Source: Parcubacteria group bacterium LiPW_15
GTDB taxonomy: Bacteria > Patescibacteriota > Minisyncoccia > UBA6257 > 2-01-FULL-56-20
Length of the DNA: 64,000 bases
Direction of reading: 5' to 3'
NCBI GenBank assembly: GCA_007375645.1
Contig: VMER01000001.1
Span: 5,139-69,138 of the forward strand
Of the stretch, positions 3,040 to 63,502 are shown in pieces (positions within the stretch are counted from its first letter, which is position 1; each line of letters starts with the position of its first letter). The notes beneath the pieces are model-generated. The model was not told where the DNA came from. It did not search any database and saw only the letters and a list, made by a program, of their open reading frames with translations. The translations under genes and the position numbers were made by a program.

Positions 3040-4557
3040 ATGAAACAAAATTCGCTCGCAAAACTCCTATCTTTCCTTCGCGCCAAACCGATGATCGGCG
3101 GTCTTGAGATCGCCGATACGGCCTTACGGTTTGTGGTTTGGGACGGAAAAACCTTTCAGATGACCGGACTTAAACTTCTGCCGGGCGTGGTCGTTGGCGG
3201 ACAACTGAAGGACAAAGAGCGTTTTATCGCCGCGCTTAAAATGTTACATGCTCAGATTTTGGGCGAAAAGAAACACAGAACTAAAATAAACGCGATAATT
3301 TCTTTAAGTTCCATCGGCGTATATACGCAGGTTTTCACCCTGCCGTTCATCGAGGGGGAGAGCCTTGAAAAAGCGGTGCAGCTGAATATTCAAATGATTT
3401 CGCCTTTGGATTTTTCGGAGGCCTATTCCGGTTGGCAGTTCGCGAATAAAGACGAAGACAAGGTTCGCCTAGAGATCTTAAGCGCTTTCGCAAACAAAGG
3501 CGTCGTGGATGAATTTTCCGGAGCGCTTCATGTTGCCGGGTTTTTGGTGGTCGCAGTGGAATCCCGCGCCCTTTCTTTATCTCGGCTCCTCAAGGAGGCC
3601 GGAGCCGGTTTCGATCCGACGCGATCGGAGGTAGTTATGAGCGTTGATGGAAGCGGATTGGACTTTTTGATAATCCGCCATGGACAACTGCATTTTGATT
3701 ATTTTAATTCCTGGCACGATATACAGGGTGAATCCAAAGAAATTTCTCCGGATGCTTTTCGTGCTGCCGTTATCAGAAATCTACATCAGGTTTTAAATTT
3801 TTATAATTCTCATTGGCAAGAGCCCCTTGATGAAATAATTCTTGCAACCACCGGCTTTCACGATGAGGTTGTAAAAATAATTCAAGAAAACTTTTCCATA
3901 AAGATTCGGGATTTTGAGCTAAACACCAGCCAAACGGTTGCACCGGATTGGTTTGTAGCTTTGGGTTCTGCGGTGAGGGGATTGATCCCGCGCCGTAGCG
4001 ACAAAGAAATAAGCCTCTTGGGCGTAGATGCCCAGGAAGAATTCGGAAGAGAACAGGTATTGGGATTTCTGCGTTTTTGGCAGGTGTTAATGCCCGCGGC
4101 TGCGGCGATATTCATGATTGCATTTGCGGGCGTTTATTTCTCCCTTTCCAATATAGATGAGAATTTGGAGGCGGACGTGGCCTCGGTAAACCGTGGAGAG
4201 CAAGCACAAGAGATGAGGGGCATCGAATCTCAAATATCCGAATTTAATCGGGCCGTAACCTTGCTTTCCAGCGTAGAAAAAGCCGCTACCCTAAAGACCA
4301 TACTGCTCCAAAAAATTTCTGATTTTTCCGGCAGGACCGGCGTAATGATATCCCGGATATATTATCAGTCTGCGAATTCGCCGATAATGATTTCCGGTTC
4401 TGCCAGGTCGCCCGATGACCTTCTGGCGTTTAAAAAACTATTGGAAGGGGAGCCGACCGTCAAGAATATAGAATTGCCTCCTTCCTCGGTGCAGGTTTCT
4501 CCGCAAGGAGCGGTGTTCTCTATGAGTTTTTCCGAAGCTCAAGCCAGCCCGCGCTAA
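3040..4557 (+). CDS. pilM: Type IV pilus assembly protein PilM fused to a PilN/PilO-like membrane domain
   Basis: N-terminal 330 aa resemble the actin-like PilM fold (GGLEIADTALRFVVW..., conserved G-rich blocks). Single TM (FWQVLMPAAAAIFMIAFAGVYF) follows, then a 150 aa periplasmic tail typical of PilN. Confidence 0.6.
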   Translation: MKQNSLAKLLSFLRAKPMIGGLEIADTALRFVVWDGKTFQMTGLKLLPGVVVGGQLKDKERFIAALKMLHAQILGEKKHRTKINAIISLSSIGVYTQVFTLPFIEGESLEKAVQLNIQMISPLDFSEAYSGWQFANKDEDKVRLEILSAFANKGVVDEFSGALHVAGFLVVAVESRALSLSRLLKEAGAGFDPTRSEVVMSVDGSGLDFLIIRHGQLHFDYFNSWHDIQGESKEISPDAFRAAVIRNLHQVLNFYNSHWQEPLDEIILATTGFHDEVVKIIQENFSIKIRDFELNTSQTVAPDWFVALGSAVRGLIPRRSDKEISLLGVDAQEEFGREQVLGFLRFWQVLMPAAAAIFMIAFAGVYFSLSNIDENLEADVASVNRGEQAQEMRGIESQISEFNRAVTLLSSVEKAATLKTILLQKISDFSGRTGVMISRIYYQSANSPIMISGSARSPDDLLAFKKLLEGEPTVKNIELPPSSVQVSPQGAVFSMSFSEAQASPR

Positions 4558-5068
4558 GAGCTTCTCCGAGAAGCAACTCCATTTTCTTTTTGGGTATATT
4601 TTTTAGAACAAATTCCTCCGCTTTTTTTCTGATTTTTTCGTCGGGATTTCTGATGCCGATGCGCATGCGTTTGAAATTGGAGATCCCTGTTTCGTTTCCG
4701 ATGGAAATGAGTCCATGGTGGCCGGCAAGGTTTGTGCTTTCGGAAATTTTTATCGTGCCTAGATTCAGGTCGCTATCGTCATGCAAGATTATTACCTCCG
4801 ACGGTTTGGCGGAAAAGTATTTTAAAACAGCCTTGACCGCGAGCCCTGAATCGTTCATGAAAGTTTTCGGCTTTACGAATATAAAAATATCTCCATTTTG
4901 TATCTCGGCCTTATGAAAGCCGAAAAGCGGGAAGCTTTTCTCCGGAGAAATATCCCCCTCCGGAAGCATTCGGGCCATAATTCCTTCAAGTGCCAGCGCC
5001 CCCGCGTTGTGGTAGGTATTTTCGTATTTTGCTCCCGGGTTTCCGAGCCCGACAAGAATTTTTCTCAT
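4520..5068 (-). CDS. pth: Peptidyl-tRNA hydrolase
   Basis: MRKILVGLGNPGAKYENTYHNAG matches the Pth N-terminal signature. Length 182 aa. Confidence 0.85.
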   Translation of the reverse strand: MRKILVGLGNPGAKYENTYHNAGALALEGIMARMLPEGDISPEKSFPLFGFHKAEIQNGDIFIFVKPKTFMNDSGLAVKAVLKYFSAKPSEVIILHDDSDLNLGTIKISESTNLAGHHGLISIGNETGISNFKRMRIGIRNPDEKIRKKAEEFVLKNIPKKKMELLLGEALSAGWLELRKNS

Positions 5069-5130: not shown

Positions 5131-5661
5131 ATGCGGAAATTTCTTGCTTCCGTGCTCGAGGTTGCCGAAATCGCCCTTATCGCTTTGGGGGCGGTGTTCA
5201 TTGTGCGGCACTTTCTGGTGCAGCCCTTTTTGGTATCGGGAGCGAGCATGGCTCCGAATTTTGAGAACGGAGATTATCTGATGGTGGACGAGCTTACCTA
5301 CCGCGTGCGCGAGCCCCAAAGGGGGGAAGTCGTGGTTTTTCGCTATCCGAACGACAATACGACTTTCTTCATCAAGCGGATAATAGGTCTTCCCGGCGAG
5401 CATGTCGTGCTCTCTGACGGCAAGGTGGAGATAAACGGAAAGATTTTGGACGAAGGTTATCTTCCTCAAAATATTTCTACCCAAGGATCCGTCGATATTG
5501 CCTTAAAAACAGCCGAATATTTCGTGATGGGAGACAACCGTCCTTATAGCTTTGATTCCAGAAGCTGGGGCGTTCTCCCCAAAGATGATCTTGTCGGTGT
5601 CGCGAGATTGAGGCTTTGGCCGGTACAGGACTTTACCGTTTTCGCCGCTCCGAATTATTAA
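5131..5661 (+). CDS. lepB: Signal peptidase I
   Basis: TM anchor followed by the GASMAPNF (Ser box) and GDNRPYSFDSRSWG (box E) motifs. Start chosen at ATG 5131 inside longer ORF 4990. Confidence 0.85.
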   Translation: MRKFLASVLEVAEIALIALGAVFIVRHFLVQPFLVSGASMAPNFENGDYLMVDELTYRVREPQRGEVVVFRYPNDNTTFFIKRIIGLPGEHVVLSDGKVEINGKILDEGYLPQNISTQGSVDIALKTAEYFVMGDNRPYSFDSRSWGVLPKDDLVGVARLRLWPVQDFTVFAAPNY

Positions 5662-5666
5662 TTAAA

Positions 5667-6974
5667 ATGCCGGATAAAAAAATAAAAGAAAAAAAGACAA
5701 TTCCCGACGGATTAAAAACCCCCAAGGGTATGCACGATATACTTCCCGGAGAAGAGGTTTGGTGGGACAAATTGTATCGCGCCGCGGAGAAAATCAGCGA
5801 ATTTTACGGTTTTCATAAGATCGAGACGCCCATACTTGAGCAAGCGTCTCTCTTTGAGCGCGCCGTGGGCGAAGATACGGATATAGTACAGAAAGAAATG
5901 TATATCGTGAAAACCAAGGGTGGAGATGTCTTGGCCTTGCGCCCCGAGTGTACCGCGCCCGTCGCCAGGGCTTTTATTGAGCACAGCCTGGGCAAGTCTT
6001 CACCGCTTCAGAAACTTTGGTATTCCGGCCCGATGTTCCGCTATGAGAATCCACAGGCCGGGCGCTTTCGCCAATTTCACCAGATAGGCTTTGAGACGAT
6101 CGGCGGGCCTAACGATCCGATGTATGACGCCCAGATAATCATCACGACCCAGAGATTTTTGGAGGAGCTGAAAATAAAAAACCTAAACCTTAAAATTAAC
6201 TCCATCGGTTGCCGAGTTTGCCGGCCGATATATAAGCGGCAGCTTCAGACCTATTACAAGCCTCATTTGAAACAGCTTTGCGCAGATTGTAATCGGAGAT
6301 ATGCCACAAACCCTCTGCGCCTTTTGGATTGTAAAAACGAAAAGTGCCAGCCGTTCAAGGAAAAAGTTCCGAACTTTTTCGATAAGCTTTGCACTACCTG
6401 CAGTACTCACTTAAAGACTGTCTTGGAATACATGGATGAACTGAAGATCCCGTATTCTTTGGACAATCAACTGGTGCGGGGTTTGGATTATTACAGTCGT
6501 ACGGTTTTTGAGTTTTATGTGGAAGGCGACGGCATGAATCTGGGTGCCGTGGCCGGAGGCGGCCGATACGATTATCTTTTGGAGGCTTTGGGCGGACGCC
6601 CGACTCCGGGTGTTGGAGCCGCGCTTGGATCAGAACGTCTAATTGAGGTAATGAAGGCCCAGGGCGCGACTCCGCAGCTCAGAGTCCCGCGTAAAGTCTT
6701 CATGATCCACGTCGGCGAACAAGCCAAAAAGAAATCTTTGGGAATAATTGAGGAACTAAGGAGGGGAAATATATCCGTAACCGAGGCCTTAAGCCGCGAG
6801 TCTTTGAAGGCGCAGCTTAAGATGGCCGATCGGGAAGGAGCCCCCCTCGCGCTGATCCTCGGCCAAAAAGAAATTTTCGAGAATTCCATCATTATCCGCG
6901 ATCTCAAAAACAGCCTTCAGGAAAATGTCCCCCTAGAAAGGCTTGTCGAAGAAATTAAAAAGCGTCTCAAATAG
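5667..6974 (+). CDS. hisS: Histidyl-tRNA synthetase
   Basis: Class II motifs. GMHDILPGE, FRYENPQAGRFRQFHQ and GGGRYD are HisRS signatures. Start chosen at ATG 5667. Confidence 0.9.
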   Translation: MPDKKIKEKKTIPDGLKTPKGMHDILPGEEVWWDKLYRAAEKISEFYGFHKIETPILEQASLFERAVGEDTDIVQKEMYIVKTKGGDVLALRPECTAPVARAFIEHSLGKSSPLQKLWYSGPMFRYENPQAGRFRQFHQIGFETIGGPNDPMYDAQIIITTQRFLEELKIKNLNLKINSIGCRVCRPIYKRQLQTYYKPHLKQLCADCNRRYATNPLRLLDCKNEKCQPFKEKVPNFFDKLCTTCSTHLKTVLEYMDELKIPYSLDNQLVRGLDYYSRTVFEFYVEGDGMNLGAVAGGGRYDYLLEALGGRPTPGVGAALGSERLIEVMKAQGATPQLRVPRKVFMIHVGEQAKKKSLGIIEELRRGNISVTEALSRESLKAQLKMADREGAPLALILGQKEIFENSIIIRDLKNSLQENVPLERLVEEIKKRLK

Positions 6975-11207: not shown

Positions 11208-11221
11208 AAAGAAATAAATAA

Positions 11222-11248
11222 GCCCTCCGGCATTCGCCGGGGGGCTTT
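11222..11248. terminator. Bidirectional intrinsic terminator between ftsZ and the convergent ORF
   Basis: 10-bp GC stem gccctccggc/gccgggggggc followed by a T-rich tract on the + strand and an A-run before it. Confidence 0.5.
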
Positions 11249-11257
11249 CGGTTCGGT

Positions 11258-11932
11258 TCAACAGTCTCTGAGTTCTTTCGCCCGACGCTTGATCTCTTCA
11301 ATGATCCGGAGCGCCTCGTCTCTCGGGGTAAGTCTTGGCGGTACCACGATTCCCGGGAAACGCAGCGGAGGAATTCCGGGCCAATCCCTTCTTATCAGCG
11401 CGGCAAACCCGTTACGAAGAAAGACAATTCCGGTTGCGCCACAGGAGAAGAGTTGCCCGTTCCGGTCCGCCTGGTGGTAGCTGGAAATCAGGCGGGAGTT
11501 TCGGCTGAGTTCTTTGAGAAGAGGGCCAGGCCTCTTCCGAGCCGACCTAGGCCTATCGATTCCCCAGTTCGGTGCGCAAGACTTCAGTTCATGGAATTTC
11601 TCTGCGTGTTTGCGAACAACTTCTTCGAACTCGTTCGCAAGCATTTCCACATTGGTTCTTCCGGTTACCGCAGTTGCGTAGATGTAGGGACATTTTCGAA
11701 AGTGCGTAGGCAGAGCATTGGGATGGGTCTTGATCTGAATCGGGAAGAATAGTCCATTCCGGAGAAACAGCGCGAGATCTATCCTGATCAAATCCAGCTC
11801 GCTACCTCTCTTCGGATGGAAAACATCCGCGATCATCGGCCATCTAGCCATGAGCATTTTCACGGCCATCATTCCCTTGTTTTCAGTGACCTCGCAGATG
11901 AATTCACACCAGGGAAGCCTCTTGTCGTTCAC
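11258..11932 (-). CDS. Hypothetical protein, GC-elevated orphan
   Basis: 224 aa ORF convergent on ftsZ, about 56% GC versus about 50% flanks. No confident family. Has an R-x6-H segment (VRKHAEKFH) and an acidic/hydrophobic core (ELDLIRIDLALF). Confidence 0.45.
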   Translation of the reverse strand: MNDKRLPWCEFICEVTENKGMMAVKMLMARWPMIADVFHPKRGSELDLIRIDLALFLRNGLFFPIQIKTHPNALPTHFRKCPYIYATAVTGRTNVEMLANEFEEVVRKHAEKFHELKSCAPNWGIDRPRSARKRPGPLLKELSRNSRLISSYHQADRNGQLFSCGATGIVFLRNGFAALIRRDWPGIPPLRFPGIVVPPRLTPRDEALRIIEEIKRRAKELRDC

Positions 11933-20848: not shown

Positions 20849-20868
20849 CCTGCCTGCCGGCAGGCAGG
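20849..20868. repeat. 20-nt perfect palindrome CCTGCCTGCCGGCAGGCAGG (copy 1 of 2)
   Basis: Self-complementary 20-mer downstream of alaS, adjacent to another GC palindrome (ctgcggctcctgcggccgcag). Identical 20-mer recurs at 59008. Confidence 0.8.
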
Positions 20869-27519: not shown

Positions 27520-27603
27520 GGGGGTCGGGGAGGAACGGGAAATGAGTTCCTCCCCGTGTTGGAATTACTCAGAACCGAGGGTTTTGAGGGAGCGGAGCGA
27601 CGC
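27520..27603 (+). repeat. Structured intergenic repeat, copy A (about 80 nt)
   Basis: gggggtcgggg...ctccccgtgt.gaattactca.aaccgagggtt.tgagggagcggagcga, about 85% identical to 43191..43269. Internal stem ggggagg/cctcccc. Confidence 0.75.
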
Positions 27604-39064: not shown

Positions 39065-39090
39065 GGGTGTATGATATCTACTCTTTGATT

Positions 39091-39169
39091 GTTTGACAAA
39101 GAGCGCCACTAGCCGTAGTTTGGAGACAGCGAAACAGCTGACAAAAATTGAAATCACAGGAGGTGCTTT
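39091..39169 (+). promoter_or_regulatory. Promoter/leader copy 1 (TTGACA-17-TAGTTT plus conserved 5' leader)
   Basis: gtTTGACAaagagcgccactagccgTAGTTTggagacagcgaaacagctgacaa is about 90% identical over 60 nt to 39801..39860. SD aggagg precedes GTG 39170. Confidence 0.6.
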
Positions 39170-39748
39170 GTGGGCGAAGCCTTCGCGTGGCTCGGAAAGA
39201 TATTCGAGCTCATTACTGCCCTCATTCCTCGGCCGTTCATTATCGACGCGACCCAGGAGGGGGTGAAGTTCAAGTACGGCAAATACATAGTTCACCTTTT
39301 GCCTGGCGTCTACGGTTATTGGCCCCTTGTCACCAAAGTCGTCGCTATCCAGGTAAAGCGCCAGGCGGTGGTCTTAAAGCCACAGGTCCTGACGACCAAA
39401 GACGGTAAATCGGTGATCATGGGGACGTTAATCGCCTACACCATAATTGATGCCGTGGCTGCTTTGACCGAGGTCGACAATCTTAGCGAAACTCTGTTTG
39501 AGGTGTCCCAGGGTGCCGTGCCGGGGGTTGTTGCCGGGAAAACCCTGCAACAGTTGATCCATGATGTTTCCGAGATTAGCGACGCGGAGTCGGGCAATGG
39601 CGTGATGACCATCCTTGACTTGGAACTTTGCGAAAGGGTGAGTTCCATTCTGCGGGGCTTTGGAGTGAATGTCCTGTACTGCAAGGTGACCGACTTCTCG
39701 TCTTGTCGCGTTCTGAACATTTCCGGTGATTTCGGCAGCTCGAAATAA
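39170..39748 (+). CDS. SPFH/band-7 domain protein (short, no TM)
   Basis: GVKFKYGKYIVHLLPGVYGYWPLVTKVVAIQVKRQAVVLKPQVLTTKDGKSVIMGTLIAYTIIDAVAAL follows the stomatin/prohibitin SPFH core pattern. GTG start, about 55% GC. Confidence 0.5.
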   Translation: MGEAFAWLGKIFELITALIPRPFIIDATQEGVKFKYGKYIVHLLPGVYGYWPLVTKVVAIQVKRQAVVLKPQVLTTKDGKSVIMGTLIAYTIIDAVAALTEVDNLSETLFEVSQGAVPGVVAGKTLQQLIHDVSEISDAESGNGVMTILDLELCERVSSILRGFGVNVLYCKVTDFSSCRVLNISGDFGSSK

Positions 39749-39787: not shown

Positions 39788-39800
39788 GATCCTTAAAAAT

Positions 39801-39881
39801 GTTTGACAAAGAGCGGTCTTAGCCGTAGTTTGGAGGCAGCGAAAGAGTTGATAACTACGCAGAAAAAAAGGAGAAAAGAAA
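39801..39881 (+). promoter_or_regulatory. Promoter/leader copy 2
   Basis: gtTTGACAaagagcggtcttagccgTAGTTTggaggcagcgaaagagttgataa. SD aaggag precedes GTG 39882. Confidence 0.6.
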
Positions 39882-41516
39882 GTGAAAGATCCAGCGAAAC
39901 TGCAGTTTTTCTTCCAACCATTTTCGGAGCTGACACTTGATGCGAAATGTCCACTGCTATTCGTCGTTTTCGAGGAGCAGGCGGACATGATCATCGGGAA
40001 GAGGTTCCCGGAAGTGGAGGAGATGCGTCAGCGCATCGACAACATCACCCGCAAGGATGACGAACAGACTGTATCGATCTTTTCGCTTATGCGGGAAGAG
40101 AAGGCAGTCCCGGCCGGTCTCGTTTATATCGAGTATCCTTGGCGAAGGAAGAGGGTCAAGCGCAGTTTGGATTTCGGTAGCATTAATTTCTACCGGAAAC
40201 TCTTGGAACGTACAACAGCTGCCACCGGGCAACTCCGGGAAATGGGTTTCAGTGAGATGACGATCTTGCTTCCCGGCAGGTTTCATCCAGAGAACCTGAA
40301 AAACGATTCCCAACGAGAAGTGCTCGAAATGTTCGTGAAAACAATGGTCGAGGCCATCGTTTACGCGAACGGTACCCTGGATGAGTTTCGAAGCACTCCC
40401 GATCCGCAGATCACCAAGGTTAGCTTCACATACTTCGGACAGTACGAACGAGTGATTCTCAATTTCTTCAATCGTGCTATCGGTGCGGGCGAAGAGATGG
40501 GGGAAGCGCTAGTTGAGGTCAGGAGATTCACAGAGCTTCCCGGGAACGAAGCCTATCCTCTCAAATTGGCTTCGGAATTTGTCGGAAGGACCATAGCTCC
40601 GCTTACAAGCGCTTCGCCGAATTGGCACAAGATCCACGATCATCGTTTTTCCGCGAACGTGAAGGCAGCGCTTCTCTATGGCGCTGAGGGCCTCGCGAAG
40701 CGTGGGTTCGGACTCATAACGGCGGTGGGGCAAGGCAGCAAATACGAACCCTGCCTTTTGAAGCTTCACTACAAGCCGAAGAAGCGTTCCAGGCCGGTAA
40801 AGAAACTGACTCTCATCGGTAAGGGCGTTACCTTTGATTCGGGCGGAGTGGATCTGAAGGGCGCAGACTCCTACGACAACATGCATCATGACATGGCCGG
40901 TGCAGCCACTGTTGTTGGAGTGCTGAAGCTTGCTGACGATTTGCGCCTGCCGGTGGAGATTGTGGCCCTTTTGCCTCTGGTCGAGAACACAATCGGTTCG
41001 AAGGCTACCCGGCCATACGACATCGTTCGTGCGTATGACGGTCAGACGGTAGAGGTTCGCAATACGGATGCCGAGGGGCGGCTGATTCTCGCGGATGCGA
41101 TCGCCTATTCGGAGAAGAACATCCGACCAAACTGCACGGTGACCGTGGCTACTCTCTGCGACATGAGCGACTTCGCACCGGACTTTTTGAAGGTCTTGGT
41201 GAACGACAAAGATCTGGAGCGGAAGGTTCGTCTCGCGGAAAAGCGCTCCAACGAAAAGATGCTGCTCTTTCCTCCGTTCGAGCACTTTAATGGTGTCTCA
41301 CTCGCTTTCGTCGGCGGGGCCGCCGACCTCAAGAATGACAACTCGTATTACTACCATTCCGGCATGGTATTTCTCGGCGAATTCTTTAAGTGGGATCCGT
41401 CGCCGTGGGTGTTCGTGGACGTATCCGAAGTATTCGAAAAGGATGCGCAAGAATACGCGGCAGGTCCCGGCTTCGGCGTTCGTTTCACGTGGAACCTCGT
41501 CAAGCAGTTTGCCTGA
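39882..41516 (+). CDS. pepA: Leucyl aminopeptidase, M17 family
   Basis: M17 signature NTDAEGRLILADAI and GKGVTFDSGGVDLK. GTG start, about 56% GC. Confidence 0.85.
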   Translation: MKDPAKLQFFFQPFSELTLDAKCPLLFVVFEEQADMIIGKRFPEVEEMRQRIDNITRKDDEQTVSIFSLMREEKAVPAGLVYIEYPWRRKRVKRSLDFGSINFYRKLLERTTAATGQLREMGFSEMTILLPGRFHPENLKNDSQREVLEMFVKTMVEAIVYANGTLDEFRSTPDPQITKVSFTYFGQYERVILNFFNRAIGAGEEMGEALVEVRRFTELPGNEAYPLKLASEFVGRTIAPLTSASPNWHKIHDHRFSANVKAALLYGAEGLAKRGFGLITAVGQGSKYEPCLLKLHYKPKKRSRPVKKLTLIGKGVTFDSGGVDLKGADSYDNMHHDMAGAATVVGVLKLADDLRLPVEIVALLPLVENTIGSKATRPYDIVRAYDGQTVEVRNTDAEGRLILADAIAYSEKNIRPNCTVTVATLCDMSDFAPDFLKVLVNDKDLERKVRLAEKRSNEKMLLFPPFEHFNGVSLAFVGGAADLKNDNSYYYHSGMVFLGEFFKWDPSPWVFVDVSEVFEKDAQEYAAGPGFGVRFTWNLVKQFA

Positions 41517-43227: not shown

Positions 43228-43269
43228 GAAATTACTCAAAACCGAGGGTTGTGAGGGAGCGGAGCGATG
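43191..43269 (+). repeat. Structured intergenic repeat, copy B
   Basis: gggggtcgggggagagcggaagggctcccccgtgtaagaaattactcaaaaccgagggttgtgagggagcggagcgatg. Stem gggggag/ctccccc is conserved with a different loop relative to copy A. Confidence 0.75.
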
Positions 43270-57837: not shown

Positions 57838-58149
57838 ATGGCAAATTTTGCGGTTATCGAAACCGGCGGTAAACAGTATAAGGTAGCCCCCGGAGAAAAA
57901 GTAAAAGTTGAGAAACTGGACGCCAAAGAAGGCGATTCTTTTAAGTTTGATAAGGTTCTTTTGACCGCCGACGGCGACAAAGTGGAAGTGGGAGCGCCTT
58001 ACGTGAACGGAGCGGCTGTCGAAGCCAAGGTTCTGGAACAGGGCAGGGCTGACAAGGTCATAGTCTTTAAGTATCACTCCAAGACGAGATATCGAAAACG
58101 AAAGGGACATCGCCAGATGTTTACCGAACTGGAAATAGTTAAGATTTAA
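57838..58149 (+). CDS. rplU: 50S ribosomal protein L21
   Basis: MANFAVIETGGKQYKVAPGEKVKVEKL matches L21. Confidence 0.9.
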   Translation: MANFAVIETGGKQYKVAPGEKVKVEKLDAKEGDSFKFDKVLLTADGDKVEVGAPYVNGAAVEAKVLEQGRADKVIVFKYHSKTRYRKRKGHRQMFTELEIVKI

Positions 58150-58164
58150 ATTAGCCTAATATCA

Positions 58165-58192
58165 AAAACTCCCGCGATTCACGGGAGTTTTT
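58165..58192 (+). terminator. Intrinsic terminator after rplU
   Basis: aaaactcccg-cgattca-cgggagtttt followed by a T-run. Confidence 0.85.
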
Positions 58193-58652
58193 GATTGGGA
58201 TCACGTTGTTATTATTTAATTAAGCCCGCCTGGTTTCAATAACGAAACCAGACTTCGGAGATATTTTTGGATAAAAAGAGGCGCCCCGATGGGGCGCCGT
58301 TGTCTGCTACTTTTACGCTCGCAGACGTGCAACCTCGGTGGGCTAATTCCGAGGATATGCCCGAGAACAAAATGAGTGGATGATTCTACTTTTCGGACAG
58401 AACGGGCTTCCGGCCCGTCTCCCTTTTAAGGGGAGCCTCATCCTTTTGGAATGTTTCGTCCGTCCGCCGACTGCCGGGGAATCAACCCGGCTTACCGAAT
58501 GGCCCGCTAGATTTCGCACTTTTGATTGCTAATCTGCTTGACGGCTGTTCAGCTGTCGGTTATTTGGCATCACCCTTTCTCCGCTCGAGTTGGCCTCGTG
58601 TTGCGTGGGGCTGTTTCGAGTGACTTGTTCGAGGTGGAGAGATGGTCGTAGG

Positions 58653-58967
58653 TTAGCCGACGACGACCAACCCTCTCTGGTTGGAGGCGCTCCAGCTGAG
58701 GAGGCGCTTGGTCGCGAGAGCCTTCTCCGCTTCCATGGCCACCACCTCCAGGATCTTCTGAGCCTTGGCGACCCTCTCCTTCCAGGTTCGGGTCCCCCCG
58801 AGGCGGAACCGGACGAGGGTGACGGCCTCCCTGGCCTCGTCCATCTGGACGGTGAGGCGTTCGAGATCGTCCTTGGTGTCGACAGCCGCGAGCTGGGTGA
58901 CCAACTCGCAGGCCGCGACGAGCGGCTGTTCGGTGACGGGGGTGACGGAAGTCGTCTTCTGGTCCAT
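58653..58967 (-). CDS. Small hypothetical protein encoded in a roughly 65% GC segment
   Basis: 104 aa. Strong SD (GAGGAGG) 6 nt before the ATG. High-GC3 codons. Sequence MDQKTTSVTPVTEQPLVAACELVTQLAAVDTKDDLERLTVQMDEAREAVTLVRFRLGG... Confidence 0.35.
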   Translation of the reverse strand: MDQKTTSVTPVTEQPLVAACELVTQLAAVDTKDDLERLTVQMDEAREAVTLVRFRLGGTRTWKERVAKAQKILEVVAMEAEKALATKRLLSWSASNQRGLVVVG

Positions 58968-58985
58968 GATGTGGACCTCCTCTCG

Positions 58986-59062
58986 TTTAGTCCCGGAGTG
59001 AAGCGGGCCTGCCTGCCGGCAGGCAGGGATAAGTTTAGGCGCCGCTTTACTCCGGAACTAAA
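58986..59062. repeat. Long imperfect inverted repeat enclosing the second copy of the 20-nt palindrome
   Basis: Arms tttagtcccggagtgaagcg / cgctttactccggaactaaa around CCTGCCTGCCGGCAGGCAGG (59008..59027). Confidence 0.75.
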
Positions 59063-59179
59063 TAGGATTTAAGTTTCTGCCGGAAATTATAGCATGGCCA
59101 CAAGAAAATGTCAATAGCCCTCAAAAAGCCTCAAAAATAAGGTTTTTTTAAGCATTTATTTTCAGTCGTTGTCGCGAAC

Positions 59180-60739
59180 TTAGTTTATGTAGAACTTCAG
59201 GGCCCCTGCGGGAATTGAACTCTCGTCTTTTGAGAGAACGTAGTGGATGTTCTTCTTTGCCTGGCCAGCCGGAGTAAAGGTGTCGGTTATGAACATCACG
59301 GTTTGCGAGGGCATTGGAATTCCGCGCACATCGACTCCCTGGGCTTTGACCACAACATACTTCGGAGTTTCTATCGGCAGGGCCAACAGCTCTTTTCCGA
59401 GTTTAATTTGATCCGCGGCAAAGGCGTTTGGAACATTTGGATTTTTACCCCAGAGGATAAAATAGGTTGTTGCAGCTTCAAGGACGAGCAATGCAAAAAG
59501 AATCACGGAGCACGCACGCACAGTTTTTATGAGACGGTCTCCGTTATGAGAGATATGGGAGAGATGAATAATTTTTTCATAAAGCCAATTCGCGCCCCAG
59601 CCTGCCAAAAGCATCACAACCGGAAGGAAGAGAATGGAGCGCAAAGCATGCGGCATTCCCTCATTCGAGATGACGACCGGCAAGACAGCCAAAATGATCC
59701 AAGCCATCATTAATGTGGCGGGTAGGGCATAACCTCTATCTTCTCCATGGGCAAATTTTTTCCACACTGCCCGAACCGTTAAGATCGTACCCATCCACAA
59801 AAATATTCCAACCGGCCAAAACACTTCCGGCCGGCCGGCAAAATTGTGGCGCCAATTCCAGTCGCCCATAAAATTGAACATTCCGGCAGTTTTCAAAATA
59901 TTAAGCGAAAGATCTTTGAGGGGGGTAGGAGAGTTCATGATCGAAACCTGGGTGGTGCGCCCCATGAAGTCCGCCGGGTTATGAAGAAAATAAAGACCTA
60001 TCGGCGCCGCCACCAGAAATGTCACGCCTATAAAAACAGCCGTGCATTTCCAAAATCCTTTATGCCGGCCAAAGAACGGAATTAGAACCAAGAAAAGCAG
60101 AGGCATTACCCGGAAAGCGATATAGGAATAAAATCCGAGTCCGAAAAATATTCCGGCGACACCGGCGTATATGAGAGTTGTGGAGTTTTTATTATCCGAA
60201 GACTTGCGGATAGCGTGCAGGAAAAAATAAAGCGCCCATACCAAAAAAAACGGAGCCATGATCGCCCGAAAGCCTATGCGGGAGAAATTTATGTGCCAAA
60301 AGCTGGTAGCCAGAAAGAATGCCGCCAAAAGCCCCACTCTCTTTGAAAAGAATTCTTTGCCCAGGAAATAAAGGCCCAAAACGGTAAGTATTCCGAATAT
60401 CGGACTCGGGAATCTTAGCGCCCAAGGCTTGCCCTCCCGATTTTCGCCGCCAGAATTTTCGGAAGGTGAAAGAACTTCCCAAAATTTAAGCGAGAGGGCT
60501 TGGATGTTCATGAAAAGCCCTTCCCGTCCGTTATTTTCCGGATAGAAGACCTTTCCGACGAAGGCGGATCCGCCCCTGGCGGAGAAGGCGCCGTTGTCTA
60601 AGATTTCCAAGGCATTGTTGCCGTTCATGGCTTCATCCGGATAAAGGCCGGGCGGAAGTTCTTTCAAATGGTAGAGGCGCAGTCCTCCTGCTATAATTAA
60701 GATAAGAGCAAGAAGCCAGAAGCTTTTTTGTTTCCCCAT
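59180..60739 (-). CDS. GT-C family glycosyltransferase (ArnT/PMT-like, GT39/GT83)
   Basis: About 12 TM segments, N-terminal loop LYPDEAMNG, large C-terminal periplasmic domain. Confidence 0.6.
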   Translation of the reverse strand: MGKQKSFWLLALILIIAGGLRLYHLKELPPGLYPDEAMNGNNALEILDNGAFSARGGSAFVGKVFYPENNGREGLFMNIQALSLKFWEVLSPSENSGGENREGKPWALRFPSPIFGILTVLGLYFLGKEFFSKRVGLLAAFFLATSFWHINFSRIGFRAIMAPFFLVWALYFFLHAIRKSSDNKNSTTLIYAGVAGIFFGLGFYSYIAFRVMPLLFLVLIPFFGRHKGFWKCTAVFIGVTFLVAAPIGLYFLHNPADFMGRTTQVSIMNSPTPLKDLSLNILKTAGMFNFMGDWNWRHNFAGRPEVFWPVGIFLWMGTILTVRAVWKKFAHGEDRGYALPATLMMAWIILAVLPVVISNEGMPHALRSILFLPVVMLLAGWGANWLYEKIIHLSHISHNGDRLIKTVRACSVILFALLVLEAATTYFILWGKNPNVPNAFAADQIKLGKELLALPIETPKYVVVKAQGVDVRGIPMPSQTVMFITDTFTPAGQAKKNIHYVLSKDESSIPAGALKFYIN

Positions 60740-60764: not shown

Positions 60765-61157
60765 ATGGAAAACGAAAAAATAGAAAAATTAGTAACCGAA
60801 GCGGAAGAAACCAGACTCATAGAGGCAGCCAAACTGCATGCCGAGTCTGTGGAGGGAAAAGAAATGAAGGGTGAAGAACTAATGAAGAAGGCAATTCAAT
60901 CCGTAACTCAAACCGTGCCGGTTCCGGAGCAGGCTGAGCCAAATTCCATTCAGAATCCTTTGACCGATTACACCGCGCAAGAACCGGAAGAAGTAAAAAG
61001 GAAGATCGAAGATCTTCTGCAGATCGCGGCGACCGATGGAATAGTCAGGGCTACGGAGGCGGCAAAACACGCCTCACCTTTCATCCTGGATGCTTTTCAT
61101 GACGCTTTAGCGGCAAAAGTCTATCCATACCTTCGGGAGAAAGGATTATTCAAATAA
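60765..61157 (+). CDS. Hypothetical acidic protein
   Basis: 130 aa, precedes the coupling ATPase with a 1-nt overlap. Confidence 0.4.
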   Translation: MENEKIEKLVTEAEETRLIEAAKLHAESVEGKEMKGEELMKKAIQSVTQTVPVPEQAEPNSIQNPLTDYTAQEPEEVKRKIEDLLQIAATDGIVRATEAAKHASPFILDAFHDALAAKVYPYLREKGLFK

Positions 61158-63502
61158 TGCTCACAGCCCTTTTTGTTTTTTTGGTGGCCGCAATACTCTC
61201 CGGGATCCTGTTTTTTGTTATCCGGTCCATTCATCGCAAGCGAACCATAAAAGATTCGCTGGAATACTCGCTTTTTGTGGTTCGTCTGCCAAAAAACCAA
61301 AAAACCGAGGGCCAGGACCCTAAGGCGGAGATAAATAAGTTCGAAGAATTTTTAAGCAGTTTACAAGGCCTAAAAAAACCGATGACTTTTGAGGTGGCGG
61401 TTCCGCATATCGGCGAAGAAATATCTTTTTATATTTCCGTGCCGAACGAGTTTACGGAAATGGCCAGACGGCAAATTCAGGGAATTTGGACCAAAGCAAG
61501 TATAGAAGAGGCGAGAGAAGATTATAATATTTTCAATTCCACCGGAGCCGCCTCCGCCGTATATTTGGCGCAAAAAGAGAATTTTTCTTTGCCCATAAAA
61601 ACTTATGAAGGCTTCGGCGCGGATACAGCCGCCGCGATATTCGGCGGTTTTACGAAGATGAGCGAGATAGGCGAAGGCGCTTCGCTTCAGATAGTTTTGC
61701 GTCCGGCCAAAAGCGAAGCCAGAAAAACTTTGAATTCGCATCTGGGTTCGTTCAAGAAGGGTTGGACCCGCAAGCAGATATTCGCGAGCGGTTTTTCCGC
61801 TGCCATAAAATCTTCAAGCCCCAAAGATGACAAAGAAAAAGAGCCTAAAGTCTTGGATGAAGAAGCGATAAAAATGTTGCAGGCGAAAACGAGCAAGCCC
61901 TTGTTCGAGGCCAATGTTCGCATTGCCGCAAGCGCTCCGATCCAGGTCCTCTCCGATAACATTTTGGGCGGCATAGCCGCAGGTTTCGAGCAATTTTCCT
62001 TGCCGCAGGGCAACCAGTTCAAAATAGTAAAGCCGAAAAATCCAGGCAACCTGATATTCGATTTTGTTTTTCGGGCCTTTAATGAAAACCAGAAAATAAT
62101 TTTGAATTCCGAAGAGATCGCAAGTTTTTATCATTTTCCGACTTCCGCCACGGAAACCCCGCGAATGAACTGGCTGAAATCCAAGGAAGCCCCTCCGCCG
62201 TCCGAACTCCCTTCGGAAGGAACTTTGATCGGGGAGAGCATTTTCCGCGGGGAAAGAAAGCCTATACGCATAACCGACGAAGACCGCCGCCGCCATATTT
62301 ATATAGTTGGTCAAACCGGAACCGGTAAAACTGTTTTTATAAACAATTGTGTAATTCAGGATATTGCCCGGGGCAAGGGCCTCGCAATAATCGATCCGCA
62401 TGGAGACCTGGCGGAAGCGGCTCTTGCGAATGTTCCTCCCGAAAGGATGAACGACGTTATTTATTTCAGTCCCGCGGATCTCCAGAAACCCCTTGGACTC
62501 AATATGCTCGAATACAACTTCGATCGGCCGGAGGAAAAGACTTTTATCGTGAACGAGATGCAGAGCATTTTTAATAAGCTTTTCAGCCAGGAAACCATGG
62601 GCCCGATGTTCGAACAATATATGCGGAACGCCCTTCTTCTCCTTATGGAAGACATGGTGAACGAACCGGCGACCCTCATCGAAGTTCCGCGTGTTTTTAC
62701 CGATCCCGAATTTCGCAAGCGAAAACTCGCGCGCATCAAAAATCCCACAGTCATAGATTTCTGGGAGAAAGAGGCCGCGAAGGCTGGCGGAGACGCGTCG
62801 CTTGCGAACATGACGCCTTATATAACCTCCAAGTTCAACAACTTTATTTCCAATGACTATATGCGGCCGATAATCGGTCAGGCCAAATCCTCCTTCAATT
62901 TTCGGGAGGTGATGGATTCCGGAAAGATACTCCTCATCAATCTTTCGAAGGGTAAGATCGGCGATATTAACGCTAATCTTTTGGGCATGGTGATAACCGG
63001 CAAACTCCTGATGGCCGCGCTCTCGCGCGTGGATATCGCCGACCAGAATGCCCGCAAGGATTTTAATTTATATATAGACGAATTCCAGAATTTCACGACC
63101 GATAGTATTTCCACCATTCTTTCGGAAGCGCGCAAATACCGTTTGAATCTGACGATCGCGCACCAATTCATCGCTCAGCTTACCGAAAAAATAAGGGATT
63201 CTGTTTTCGGCAATGTCGGCGCGCAGATAGTTTTCCGGGTTGGCGTGCAGGACGCGGAGTTTTTGGTGAAGCAATTCGAACCGGTCTTTGACGTTAACGA
63301 TCTTATCAATATCCCGAATCTTAATGCGCATGCCAAAATTCTCATAAACGGCCATCCGGCAAACCCGTTTAATTTGAGGGAAGGTTTTCCGCCAAAAGGG
63401 AGCTTGGAGGTGACTGAGAAACTTAAGGAGATGTCGCGTTCCCAATACGGAATGGAACGTAATACGGTGGAAGAGGAGATATATAGACGCTTACGGACAT
63501 GA
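61157..63502 (+). CDS. Type IV secretion/conjugation coupling-protein-like ATPase (VirD4/TraD/TraG family, AAA-like)
   Basis: N-terminal TM. Walker A HIYIVGQTGTGKT, Walker B LYIDEFQNF. C-terminal region similar to TraD-type coupling proteins. Confidence 0.6.
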   Translation: MLTALFVFLVAAILSGILFFVIRSIHRKRTIKDSLEYSLFVVRLPKNQKTEGQDPKAEINKFEEFLSSLQGLKKPMTFEVAVPHIGEEISFYISVPNEFTEMARRQIQGIWTKASIEEAREDYNIFNSTGAASAVYLAQKENFSLPIKTYEGFGADTAAAIFGGFTKMSEIGEGASLQIVLRPAKSEARKTLNSHLGSFKKGWTRKQIFASGFSAAIKSSSPKDDKEKEPKVLDEEAIKMLQAKTSKPLFEANVRIAASAPIQVLSDNILGGIAAGFEQFSLPQGNQFKIVKPKNPGNLIFDFVFRAFNENQKIILNSEEIASFYHFPTSATETPRMNWLKSKEAPPPSELPSEGTLIGESIFRGERKPIRITDEDRRRHIYIVGQTGTGKTVFINNCVIQDIARGKGLAIIDPHGDLAEAALANVPPERMNDVIYFSPADLQKPLGLNMLEYNFDRPEEKTFIVNEMQSIFNKLFSQETMGPMFEQYMRNALLLLMEDMVNEPATLIEVPRVFTDPEFRKRKLARIKNPTVIDFWEKEAAKAGGDASLANMTPYITSKFNNFISNDYMRPIIGQAKSSFNFREVMDSGKILLINLSKGKIGDINANLLGMVITGKLLMAALSRVDIADQNARKDFNLYIDEFQNFTTDSISTILSEARKYRLNLTIAHQFIAQLTEKIRDSVFGNVGAQIVFRVGVQDAEFLVKQFEPVFDVNDLINIPNLNAHAKILINGHPANPFNLREGFPPKGSLEVTEKLKEMSRSQYGMERNTVEEEIYRRLRT

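Follow-up and report, generated by a model that had tools for sequence, protein, structure and literature searches.

A predicted transcription unit with a small open reading frame of maintained third-position GC and a conserved pseudoknotted 3′ RNA domain next to rplU in a clade of Patescibacteria

Bacterial small RNAs (sRNAs) that have a dual function or are derived from 3′ untranslated regions (3′-UTRs) include SgrS/SgrT, RNAIII/hld and CpxQ. The subject of this work is a unit of about 810 nt located on the minus strand between rplU and a glycosyltransferase gene in a 64,000-nt stretch of contig VMER01000001.1 from Parcubacteria group bacterium LiPW_15, hereafter referred to as the window, which resembles these RNAs in that one transcript with its own promoter and intrinsic terminator would carry both a small open reading frame (ORF) and a conserved structured domain. 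Despite that, it shows no sequence or structure relation to SgrS/SgrT, RNAIII/hld or CpxQ, its RNA domain, with a length of ~200 nt, two halves and a pseudoknot, is far larger than typical seed-type sRNAs, and the unit is not known to have a target or to act in trans. The extreme G+C content at third codon positions (GC3), which is maintained in the ORF of the unit, is likewise a feature lacking in those examples.

The unit may also be compared with the OLE, GOLLD, ROOL and raiA RNAs of Rfam, large structured orphan ncRNAs that were discovered as intergenic islands of high GC content, with which it shares a GC-rich, highly conserved multi-helix RNA in a lower-GC genome, a narrow range, and a function that is not readable from the context. 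It differs from them in giving no covariance-model match, in the shorter length of its RNA and in the fusion of this RNA to a coding ORF. Literature searches returned no description of the unit. We lean, with slightly more confidence than doubt, towards reading it as a dual-function, very stable and highly expressed RNA, consisting of the ORF with maintained GC3 and an active 3′ RNA domain.

The transcription unit and its relatives

Minus-strand positions 59114..58272 appear to form one autonomous transcription unit composed of a promoter, a leader hairpin, a Shine-Dalgarno (SD) sequence, an ORF of 104 aa, an RNA domain of ~200 nt and a terminator, with ~810 nt bracketed by the promoter (59114..59086, minus strand) and the terminator hairpin (58298..58280, minus strand). 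It is located between rplU (57838-58149, Pfam Ribosomal_L21p) and the glycosyltransferase gene (59180-60739, PMT_2), and is considered autonomous because the latter, lying upstream, has its own terminator, a hairpin with a T-run, just ahead of the unit promoter. The features are as follows:

59086..59114, minus strand: sigma-70 consensus promoter with extended -10 (TTGACA, 17 nt, TGcTATAAT; scan match 12/12)
58986..59062, minus strand: conserved 5′ leader hairpin of 22 pairs with one conserved A·C mismatch and a variable apical loop
59008..59027, no strand assigned: perfect 20-nt palindrome CCTGCCTGCCGGCAGGCAGG at the tip of the leader hairpin, with a second copy at 20849-20868 after alaS
58976..58982, minus strand: SD sequence GAGGAGG, 8 nt before the ATG
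58653..58967, minus strand: small ORF of 104 aa, 65.7% GC, with GC contents of 0.65, 0.43 and 0.90 at the first, second and third codon positions
58585..58652, minus strand: variable GC-rich spacer hairpins between the ORF stop codon and the RNA domain, differing in sequence and length by lineage
58377..58584, minus strand: conserved structured RNA domain of ~200 nt, predicted to have two multi-helix halves and a conserved tail
58559..58467, minus strand: RNA domain A, with the closing helix CCGAC/GUCGG, internal helices and hairpin P3 (RNAalifold)
58466..58394, minus strand: RNA domain B, with the closing helix CGGACGGA/UCUGUCCG, a four-way junction and three hairpins (RNAalifold)
58484..58479, minus strand: 5′ half of the predicted pseudoknot, the P3 loop UGAUUC, pairing with 58386..58381
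58386..58381, minus strand: 3′ half of the predicted pseudoknot, the tail GAAUCA, pairing with the P3 loop
58272..58298, minus strand: intrinsic terminator of the unit, GGCGCCCC-AUC-GGGGCGCC followed by UCUUUUUAU, a hairpin of 8 GC pairs with a U-run
58230..58251, minus strand: extra 8-bp hairpin CTGGTTTC/GAAACCAG between the unit terminator and the rplU terminator
58161..58195, no strand assigned: bidirectional terminator hairpin common to the unit and rplU, consisting of an A-run, a hairpin with 17-nt arms and a T-run, and kept in relatives

The CTATTGACA-N17-CATGCTATAAT promoter is invariant in nine of nine distinct relatives, and we infer a transcription start near 59079. The leader hairpin had been recorded in a preliminary description of this locus, made by a reader of the sequence, as a 77-nt inverted repeat centred on a perfect 20-nt palindrome, which is correct: its arms, 58986-59006 and 59042-59062, are 21 nt each and 90% complementary. 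Five of the 22 pairs have compensatory changes (RNAalifold, 8 sequences), and the stem is maintained in the relatives L086 and L097 despite many substitutions. The apical loop is AT-rich in most lineages, with other inserts in L086 and L097 and the 20-nt palindrome in the window only. The SD sequence and the ATG are maintained in L001 and all the other relatives though the nearby sequence has strongly diverged, and the leader near the SD sequence is A/G-rich, unstructured and AT-rich. The unit terminator is present in all relatives, including L097, with differing loops.

The stretch after rplU is indeed hairpin-dense, as was stated earlier. Perfect or near-perfect stems within 58150-58660 are found at 58161-58195, 58230-58251 and 58280-58298, with others at 58402-58418 and 58538-58559, while stems 58420-58436 and 58478-58496 are seen in predicted folds. 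This region folds better than dinucleotide shuffles on both strands (z = -3.4 for the minus strand and -4.9 for the plus strand), and the full transcript of ~800 nt folds far better than its shuffles (z = -6.0). The reported absence of rpmA also holds, no L27-like ORF having been found anywhere in the 64-kb window; the next gene after rplU is convergent with it both here and in every relative examined, even in L003, which has no unit.

Two contigs, L001 (ENA) and L095 (JGI), are 94.7% identical to the window from the glycosyltransferase gene through the unit to the rplU terminator. The same join is present in independent ENA, JGI, NCBI and Logan assemblies, which answers the possibility of an assembly chimera named in the preliminary description. 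A scan with rplU revealed L002, in which rplU is 94% identical and the unit lies between the same two genes, and L003 (rplU 88% identical), which is cleanly devoid of the unit and has 127 nt with one terminator between these genes. Further lineages (L082-L093, L097, L134-L136) were reached via homologues of the L002 ORF. In all, the unit was found in L002, L082-L094, L096, L097 and L134-L136, that is, in at least seven related lineages, and at the same locus: on every contig long enough the ORF is located downstream of the PMT_2 gene, and nearly all of them converge on rplU, with the synonymous divergence (dS) of flanking genes across the unit-bearing lineages ranging from 0.9 to more than 2.5.

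The RNA domain occurs as a single copy per locus and includes a 24-nt stretch which is invariant across all lineages bearing the domain. A metagenome scan with this stretch returned members of this clade only, and viral contigs contained no copy of it. The unit is clade-specific, single-copy and syntenic and, as judged from these comparisons, passed on vertically within a small clade of Patescibacteria (candidate phyla radiation, CPR), the host clade being probably Paceibacterota.

Two of the retrieved contigs deserve separate mention. L097 has at 3674-4681 the promoter, the leader hairpin, an ORF of 147 aa (GC3 0.88) and the terminator, and no 3′ RNA domain. The JGI contig L098 is a chimera, the last 432 nt of which (5348-5779) are 100% identical to the L091 unit, with the remainder belonging to an organism of 65% GC; its join yields a false fusion of a GH88-like protein with the C-terminal tail of the ORF (P0012).

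The small ORF and its third codon positions

The GC-rich segment, given as ~64% GC in the preliminary description, is the strongest GC outlier of the window (0.67 per 300 nt vs 0.485 ± 0.037), two weaker GC-rich stretches being located at 11219-11608 (0.59 per 300 nt) and 40840-41183 (0.58 per 300 nt). The same description had noted a minus-strand, SD-led ORF of 104 aa with codons foreign to the genome, and this is borne out by the GAGGAGG motif 8 nt from the ATG and by the GC3 of 0.90 vs 0.54 ± 0.05, with a maximum of 0.68, across 57 other likely genes, about 7 standard deviations above. The rise in GC starts abruptly at the ORF start codon, directly after the AT-rich leader, and concerns mainly third positions. 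A plus-strand ORF at 58590-59072 was considered as a gene and rejected: such a frame opens automatically at a GC3 near 1, and its lower GC content at first than at second codon positions is not gene-like.

Several properties characterise the 104-aa ORF as coding, namely a period-3 composition, a conserved start codon with an SD sequence, in-frame indels and conserved residues. Its homologues share only 30-40% amino acid identity; the L002 ORF, for instance, has 155 aa and matches that of the window at 38% identity across 58 residues. The family members elsewhere have about 150 aa with a K/R/E/A-rich tail, which is absent in the window lineage, and nine residues of the N-terminal helical domain are invariant in the family (A19, C20, L22, V23, V52, R55, L56, G57 and W62). 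Between the window and L001 the SD sequence, the ATG and the frame survive a strongly divergent patch of ~100 nt that includes a 3-nt indel. The protein has no meaningful match in Pfam, PHROGs, NCBIfam, PADLOC, the PDB sequence search or Foldseek-PDB, and its AlphaFold model is all-helical with a predicted local distance difference test score (pLDDT) of 67.6. No homologue outside the clade was present among 1.84 billion representative proteins, an exhaustive search returning the sister strain only, and none was found in phages, plasmids or viral contigs. These comparisons characterise the ORF, by its coding signature, as a probably translated member of an orphan, fast-evolving family of putative helical proteins confined to the clade.

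The ORF region is also a hot spot of recombination or variation. The divergent patch corresponds to 58935-59040 of the window and 355-470 of L001, the two strains being otherwise 98-99% identical; L090 is a mosaic allele in which the N-terminus of L002 is joined to a different tail, and L087 and L091 have identical rplU genes and different ORF tails.

A GC3 of 0.87-0.98 is found in all the homologues of the ORF, in genomes of ~48% GC. The dS of the ORF is 2-4 times below that of the neighbouring glycosyltransferase gene, with values of 0.79 and 1.55, respectively, between the window and L002, 0.34 and 0.90 between L002 and L082, and 0.56 and 2.46 between L086 and L097, the nonsynonymous divergence (dN) for the same pairs being 0.63 and 0.13, 0.37 and 0.07, and 0.28 and 0.25. 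C<->G changes make up 56% of synonymous third-position differences in the ORF and 16% in the glycosyltransferase gene, and the ratio of AAG to AAA codons is 91:2 in the former vs 30:91 in the latter. The third positions thus toggle between G and C and avoid A and T, which argues for constraint and not for a residual donor composition. On this pattern of substitutions, the third positions of the ORF are shown to be held to G/C by what appears to be ongoing constraint, the composition being old and maintained. The ORF RNAs fold better than synonymous-codon shuffles in four of four lineages (z = -1.6, -5.3, -3.1 and -2.1). The GC3 of rplU, weighed when translational selection was considered as the cause of the high GC3, is 0.50.

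The main rival explanation, possible though improbable in our estimate, is that of an ordinary small gene at a recombination hot spot, with GC-biased gene conversion (gBGC) giving the GC, the hairpins acting as stabilisers or terminators and the 3′ domain being inactive. The mosaic alleles (L090, the tails of L091 vs L087, and the window differing from L001 in the ~100-nt patch only) and the GC-rich spacers after the ORF would agree with it. Codon-linked selection nevertheless fits better than regional gBGC because the GC rise, which lies chiefly in third positions, begins abruptly at the start codon and AT-rich pieces persist inside the unit, namely in the leader, in the apical loop and in a stem inserted into a variable hairpin. 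Besides, the 3′ domain exceeds the adjacent coding genes in conservation and its predicted pseudoknot shows compensatory change, which is beyond the needs of a stabiliser.

It has also to be considered whether the ~800-nt transcript is a long structured non-coding RNA (ncRNA) with the ORF untranslated, which would be consistent with the strong folding of the full transcript (z = -6.0 vs shuffles), with naive dN/dS values close to 1, with a protein for which relatives are not known and the model is mediocre (pLDDT 67.6), and with the ease with which GC-rich frames stay open. We find this unlikely, as opposed to translation of the ORF, in view of the period-3 composition and GC3 of 0.9-0.98 upheld through extensive divergence, the strong SD sequence and ATG in every lineage behind an A/G-rich unstructured leader, the in-frame indels, and the invariant residues including Cys and Trp.

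Horizontally acquired DNA was the interpretation given in the preliminary description, and the corresponding explanation would be a recent island from a donor of high GC content, carrying an ncRNA and a cargo gene and flagged by palindromic repeats. The unit does resemble recent genomic islands and ORFans in its strongly atypical GC content and codon usage, its orphan protein and its presence or absence among relatives, L003 being without it, and a repeated palindrome is nearby. It differs from them in occupying one shared locus in at least seven lineages with saturated synonymous sites (flanking dS 0.9 to >2.5) and in a composition which is maintained and not ameliorating, the GC3 being undecayed despite an ORF dS of 0.3-0.8 and amino acid identities of 30-40%. 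Neither mobility genes such as an integrase or transposase nor a tRNA target or flanking direct repeats accompany it, and the palindrome is missing at this site in all relatives. The homology check proposed for the ORF returned clade members only, with no donor-like homologue in the 1.84 billion representatives, nor any in phages, plasmids or viral contigs. The transfer of the segment as a recent island is, in our opinion, unlikely to a slightly greater degree than an untranslated ORF, and the unit is not fresh foreign DNA.

The 3′ RNA domain and the proposed reading of the unit

The RNA domain is 87.6% identical to that of L002 vs ~78% for the flanking genes. Its whole predicted structure including the pseudoknot comprises 55 pairs with 96.4% of cells paired, and nine of these pairs have compensatory changes vs 2.2 ± 1.3 in shuffles (reached in none of 500) and at most 4 in slid controls. 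In the pseudoknot, which connects the P3 loop with the tail, 97% of cells are paired vs 23-56% in slid controls, and in L086 both partners have been exchanged in two of the six pairs with pairing retained; a C-G/U-G alternation is seen as well. In three lineages one hairpin of the domain has gained length through an added AT-rich stem with perfect pairing, and in L134 the same variable hairpin is re-coded from CAUUC/GAAUG to CGCUC/GAGCG. The domain is assigned to the ORF (minus) strand on the evidence of the promoter, of the terminator and of its G-U pairs, an invariant G-U and many further G-U pairs being A·C mismatches on the opposite strand.

No match to Rfam 15 was obtained on either strand of the window at the gathering score, and more permissive thresholds (E <= 10 in the window, E <= 5 in six relatives) brought up only generic hairpin noise. 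The check proposed earlier, a cmscan search for RNaseP_bact_a/b, tmRNA, 6S and signal recognition particle (SRP) RNAs, gave no match on either strand at E <= 10, six relatives gave no RNase P, tmRNA, 6S or SRP match at E <= 5, and ARAGORN found no tmRNA in the window. The 3′ domain is accordingly presented as a putative undescribed conserved pseudoknotted RNA, the support for which is real but modest. Of the ncRNA gene with a small gene that the preliminary description proposed, the structured ncRNA and the SD-led gene are retained, and the assignment to a known RNA family is not.

Three candidate interpretations of parts of the domain were discarded. A closing helix P1 (GGGUGAU/AUCAUCC) from the single-sequence fold is not kept in L087 or L086 and was replaced by the loop-tail pseudoknot. 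A tRNA-like cloverleaf in domain B has misfitting loop sizes and junctions and an unconserved "anticodon" loop, and ARAGORN calls no tRNA there. The conserved RAAAGGDG motif before the RNA domain, taken as the SD sequence of a second ORF, is followed by no conserved start codon or ORF.

Hairpins dense on both strands might instead belong to an element that works at the DNA level in single-stranded form, for example an origin of transfer or a single-strand initiation or recombination site, perhaps tied to a VirD4/TraG-like ATPase gene, which encodes a protein resembling the coupling proteins of type IV secretion systems (T4SS) and is conserved two genes off. This explanation is, to our mind, very unlikely, the region being bracketed by a conserved promoter and a conserved terminator with an SD-led ORF inside, single-copy and chromosomal in all lineages, and with no relaxase. 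The ATPase gene itself (61157-63502, plus strand; DUF8128, T4SS-DNA_transf, TrwB_AAD_bind and TraG-D_C domains) is kept in all relatives with sufficient flank, and no link between it and the unit has been established.

Bacterial RNase P RNA was suggested by two strings on the plus strand which resemble ACAGAAnCCGGCUUA, a P4-like block; the strings exist, and they are antisense to the RNA, corresponding on the minus strand to P3 and the last hairpin of domain B. The RNA of the unit further differs from RNase P RNA (RF00010/RF00011) in giving no model match, in having no CR-I (GAGGAAAGUCC...)/P4 partner, and in its ~200-nt architecture of two junction domains with a loop-tail pseudoknot, and the unit is not RNase P. 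A divergent known RNA (RNase P, tmRNA, 6S, SRP) or an assembly chimera can practically be dismissed: the former has in its favour only the likeness of the two strings to the CR-V block, which are antisense to the strand favoured by G-U pairs, and the latter only the truly chimeric public contig L098 at this same GC-rich ORF, as opposed to the window join, which independent assemblies reproduce.

The dual-function reading, to which we return, proposes a unit built to give a very abundant and very stable RNA. Such an abundant, durable RNA is suggested because the perfect promoter, the strong SD sequence with an A/G leader, the structured ends and the choice of codons agree with each other. The leader hairpin and the 3′ domain would shield the transcript ends, and codons ending in G/C would make the ORF more structured and free it of A/U-rich single-stranded sites. 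The 3′ domain, whose conservation exceeds what a simple stabiliser needs, probably acts independently, most likely with a specific activity, either as an ncRNA that is 3′-UTR-embedded or released by processing, or as a binding platform.

A number of points weigh against this reading. Transcription, translation and stability of the unit are all deduced from its sequence. Covariation is thin, with a narrow clade, ~8 distinct sequences and most helices invariant, and one divergent sequence, L086, supplies a number of the compensatory events, among them the two of the pseudoknot, with others from L134. The two modules are separable, since L097 keeps the promoter, leader hairpin, ORF and terminator and is devoid of the RNA domain; the window lineage, in turn, keeps the RNA and has lost the basic tail of the protein, so that the parts are not strictly co-dependent. 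The extra folding of the window ORF over synonymous shuffles is weak (z = -1.6), and frequent recombination in the ORF (mosaic L090, L091) leaves gBGC as a possible contributor. Finally, the naive dN/dS is near 1 in several pairs, which also fits weak selection on the protein; we attribute it to the constrained synonymous sites, the selection on the protein being uncertain.

The 20-nt palindrome, other repeats and the meaning of the unit

The palindrome CCTGCCTGCCGGCAGGCAGG is present in exactly two copies in the window, where shuffles expect 0.00. The earlier statement that the 20-mer recurs at 20849 with a shared cttatc flank is right for the 20-mer; the flank is weak, being adjacent to one copy and 7 nt from the other. 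It was also thought to mark and bound the GC-rich segment. It is a repeated element and not a boundary, the inverted repeat around it being the conserved leader hairpin, and neither the 95%-identical strain nor any other relative has it at the hairpin tip. The palindrome would appear to be a tiny repeat without relation to the unit, which has taken the place of the apical loop in this strain only. A preference for hairpin tips was considered and rejected, flank complementarity being at the background level.

Outside the window, the palindrome is found at the end of contig L097 (4657-4676), where its perfect symmetry extends over 30 nt up to the point at which the contig breaks off. This contig stops 15 nt past the palindrome centre, which is what a break of the assembly at a longer perfect inverted repeat would produce; the true arms there may be longer. 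It also occurs in 35 viral stretches from IMG/VR (L099-L133), as compared to none for a control palindrome of the same design. These contigs have 38-68% GC and unrelated flanks, several of them carry 2-6 or more copies, and independent samples show it again at the same loci. A search of isolate phage records gave no exact copy at E <= 10, and the listed plasmid matches are partial and at chance level. In L123 (2239-2330) the palindrome is a clean 20-nt insertion into the variable loop of tRNA-Met, between AGG and TC, and ARAGORN still calls the tRNA; the related contig L100 (8580-8660) shares this insertion and has in addition lost the T-arm, and in L130 (495-545) the palindrome is in the D-loop of a tRNA-Lys-like fragment, between GGTA and GAGC. 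Direct repeats of 7-14 nt flank three of 42 copies. A sequencing adapter was rejected as its origin in view of the same-locus copies in independent samples and the copy between contiguous tRNA halves, and we know of no adapter which it matches.

The palindrome looks like a very small repeat of the repetitive extragenic palindrome (REP) or small dispersed repeat (SDR) kind. As with REP/REPIN sequences and the SDRs of cyanobacteria, cited in PMC3116915 and used here for comparison with the palindrome only, it is very short, GC-rich, apparently multi-copy and mostly extragenic, its copies are sometimes clustered or degenerate beside perfect ones (L099, L103, L105), and the insertion is clean and without obvious target duplication. 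It differs from them in the identity of the 20-mer across contigs of 38-68% GC with unrelated flanks and in its copies inside tRNA genes, and from REP sequences in that GTAG precedes it in L119 only and not at the window copies. A RAYT/IS200-like gene was not seen either, no scan aimed at one having been made.

Other repeats were noted as well. A small hairpin, CTGGTTTCGTTATTGAAACCAG, is located 3′ of the unit terminator in the window (58230-58251) and in several relatives (L087, L088, L089, L091, L095 and L096), whereas in L097 (3731-3748) it is found at the opposite end of the unit, ahead of the promoter; possibly it is another small hairpin able to move. Two copies of a direct repeat of 38 nt (AATTACTCAGAACCGAGGGTTTTGAGGGAGCGGAGCGA), 95% identical, are present at 27563-27600 and 43230-43267, 15.7 kb apart. 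A 55-nt direct repeat, 85% identical and containing TTGACA, is present at 39090-39144 and 39800-39854, upstream of two successive ORFs, 39170-39748 (GC3 0.68) and 39882-41516 (GC3 0.64), which rank next after the 104-aa ORF in GC3 within the window. A first guess that the latter ORF, of 544 aa, encodes GroEL was not borne out.

A bolder version of the dual-function reading, which we put forward as rather improbable, is that of a new dual-function RNA particle. Its pseudoknotted domain would represent a new class acting as a ribozyme, a ligand or protein sensor or a ribonucleoprotein scaffold, and the synonymous sites of its ORF would be G/C-locked by RNA-level selection, be it for extreme stability, against attack by A/U-directed RNases, or for survival and translation in unusual conditions; separately, the palindrome might be among the smallest mobile DNA elements, common to CPR bacteria and many uncultured viruses and able to land in tRNA loops. 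In the most speculative form of this proposal, the RNA would act outside the producer cell, in a high-GC host of these episymbionts.

To our knowledge, few described RNA families are known from CPR bacteria, and the putative 3′ domain would be a new, well-conserved pseudoknotted RNA from this group, unmatched in Rfam 15. The ORF family is represented by a strongly promoted, clade-unique protein with a rapidly recombining sequence. As for the palindrome, it is strongly over-represented in viral metagenomes and may point to an uncatalogued tiny mobile element or to a recurrent mutational mechanism. What is unusual in the unit is, on the one hand, this passenger palindrome, also occurring in uncultured viruses, and, on the other, a selectively maintained island of codon composition. 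Atypical GC content and codon usage are routinely read as signs of recent transfer, to which this unit, being old, syntenic and maintained, is a clean counter-example, and its ORF offers a tractable case of strong selection, or of biased conversion, at synonymous sites in a bacterium.

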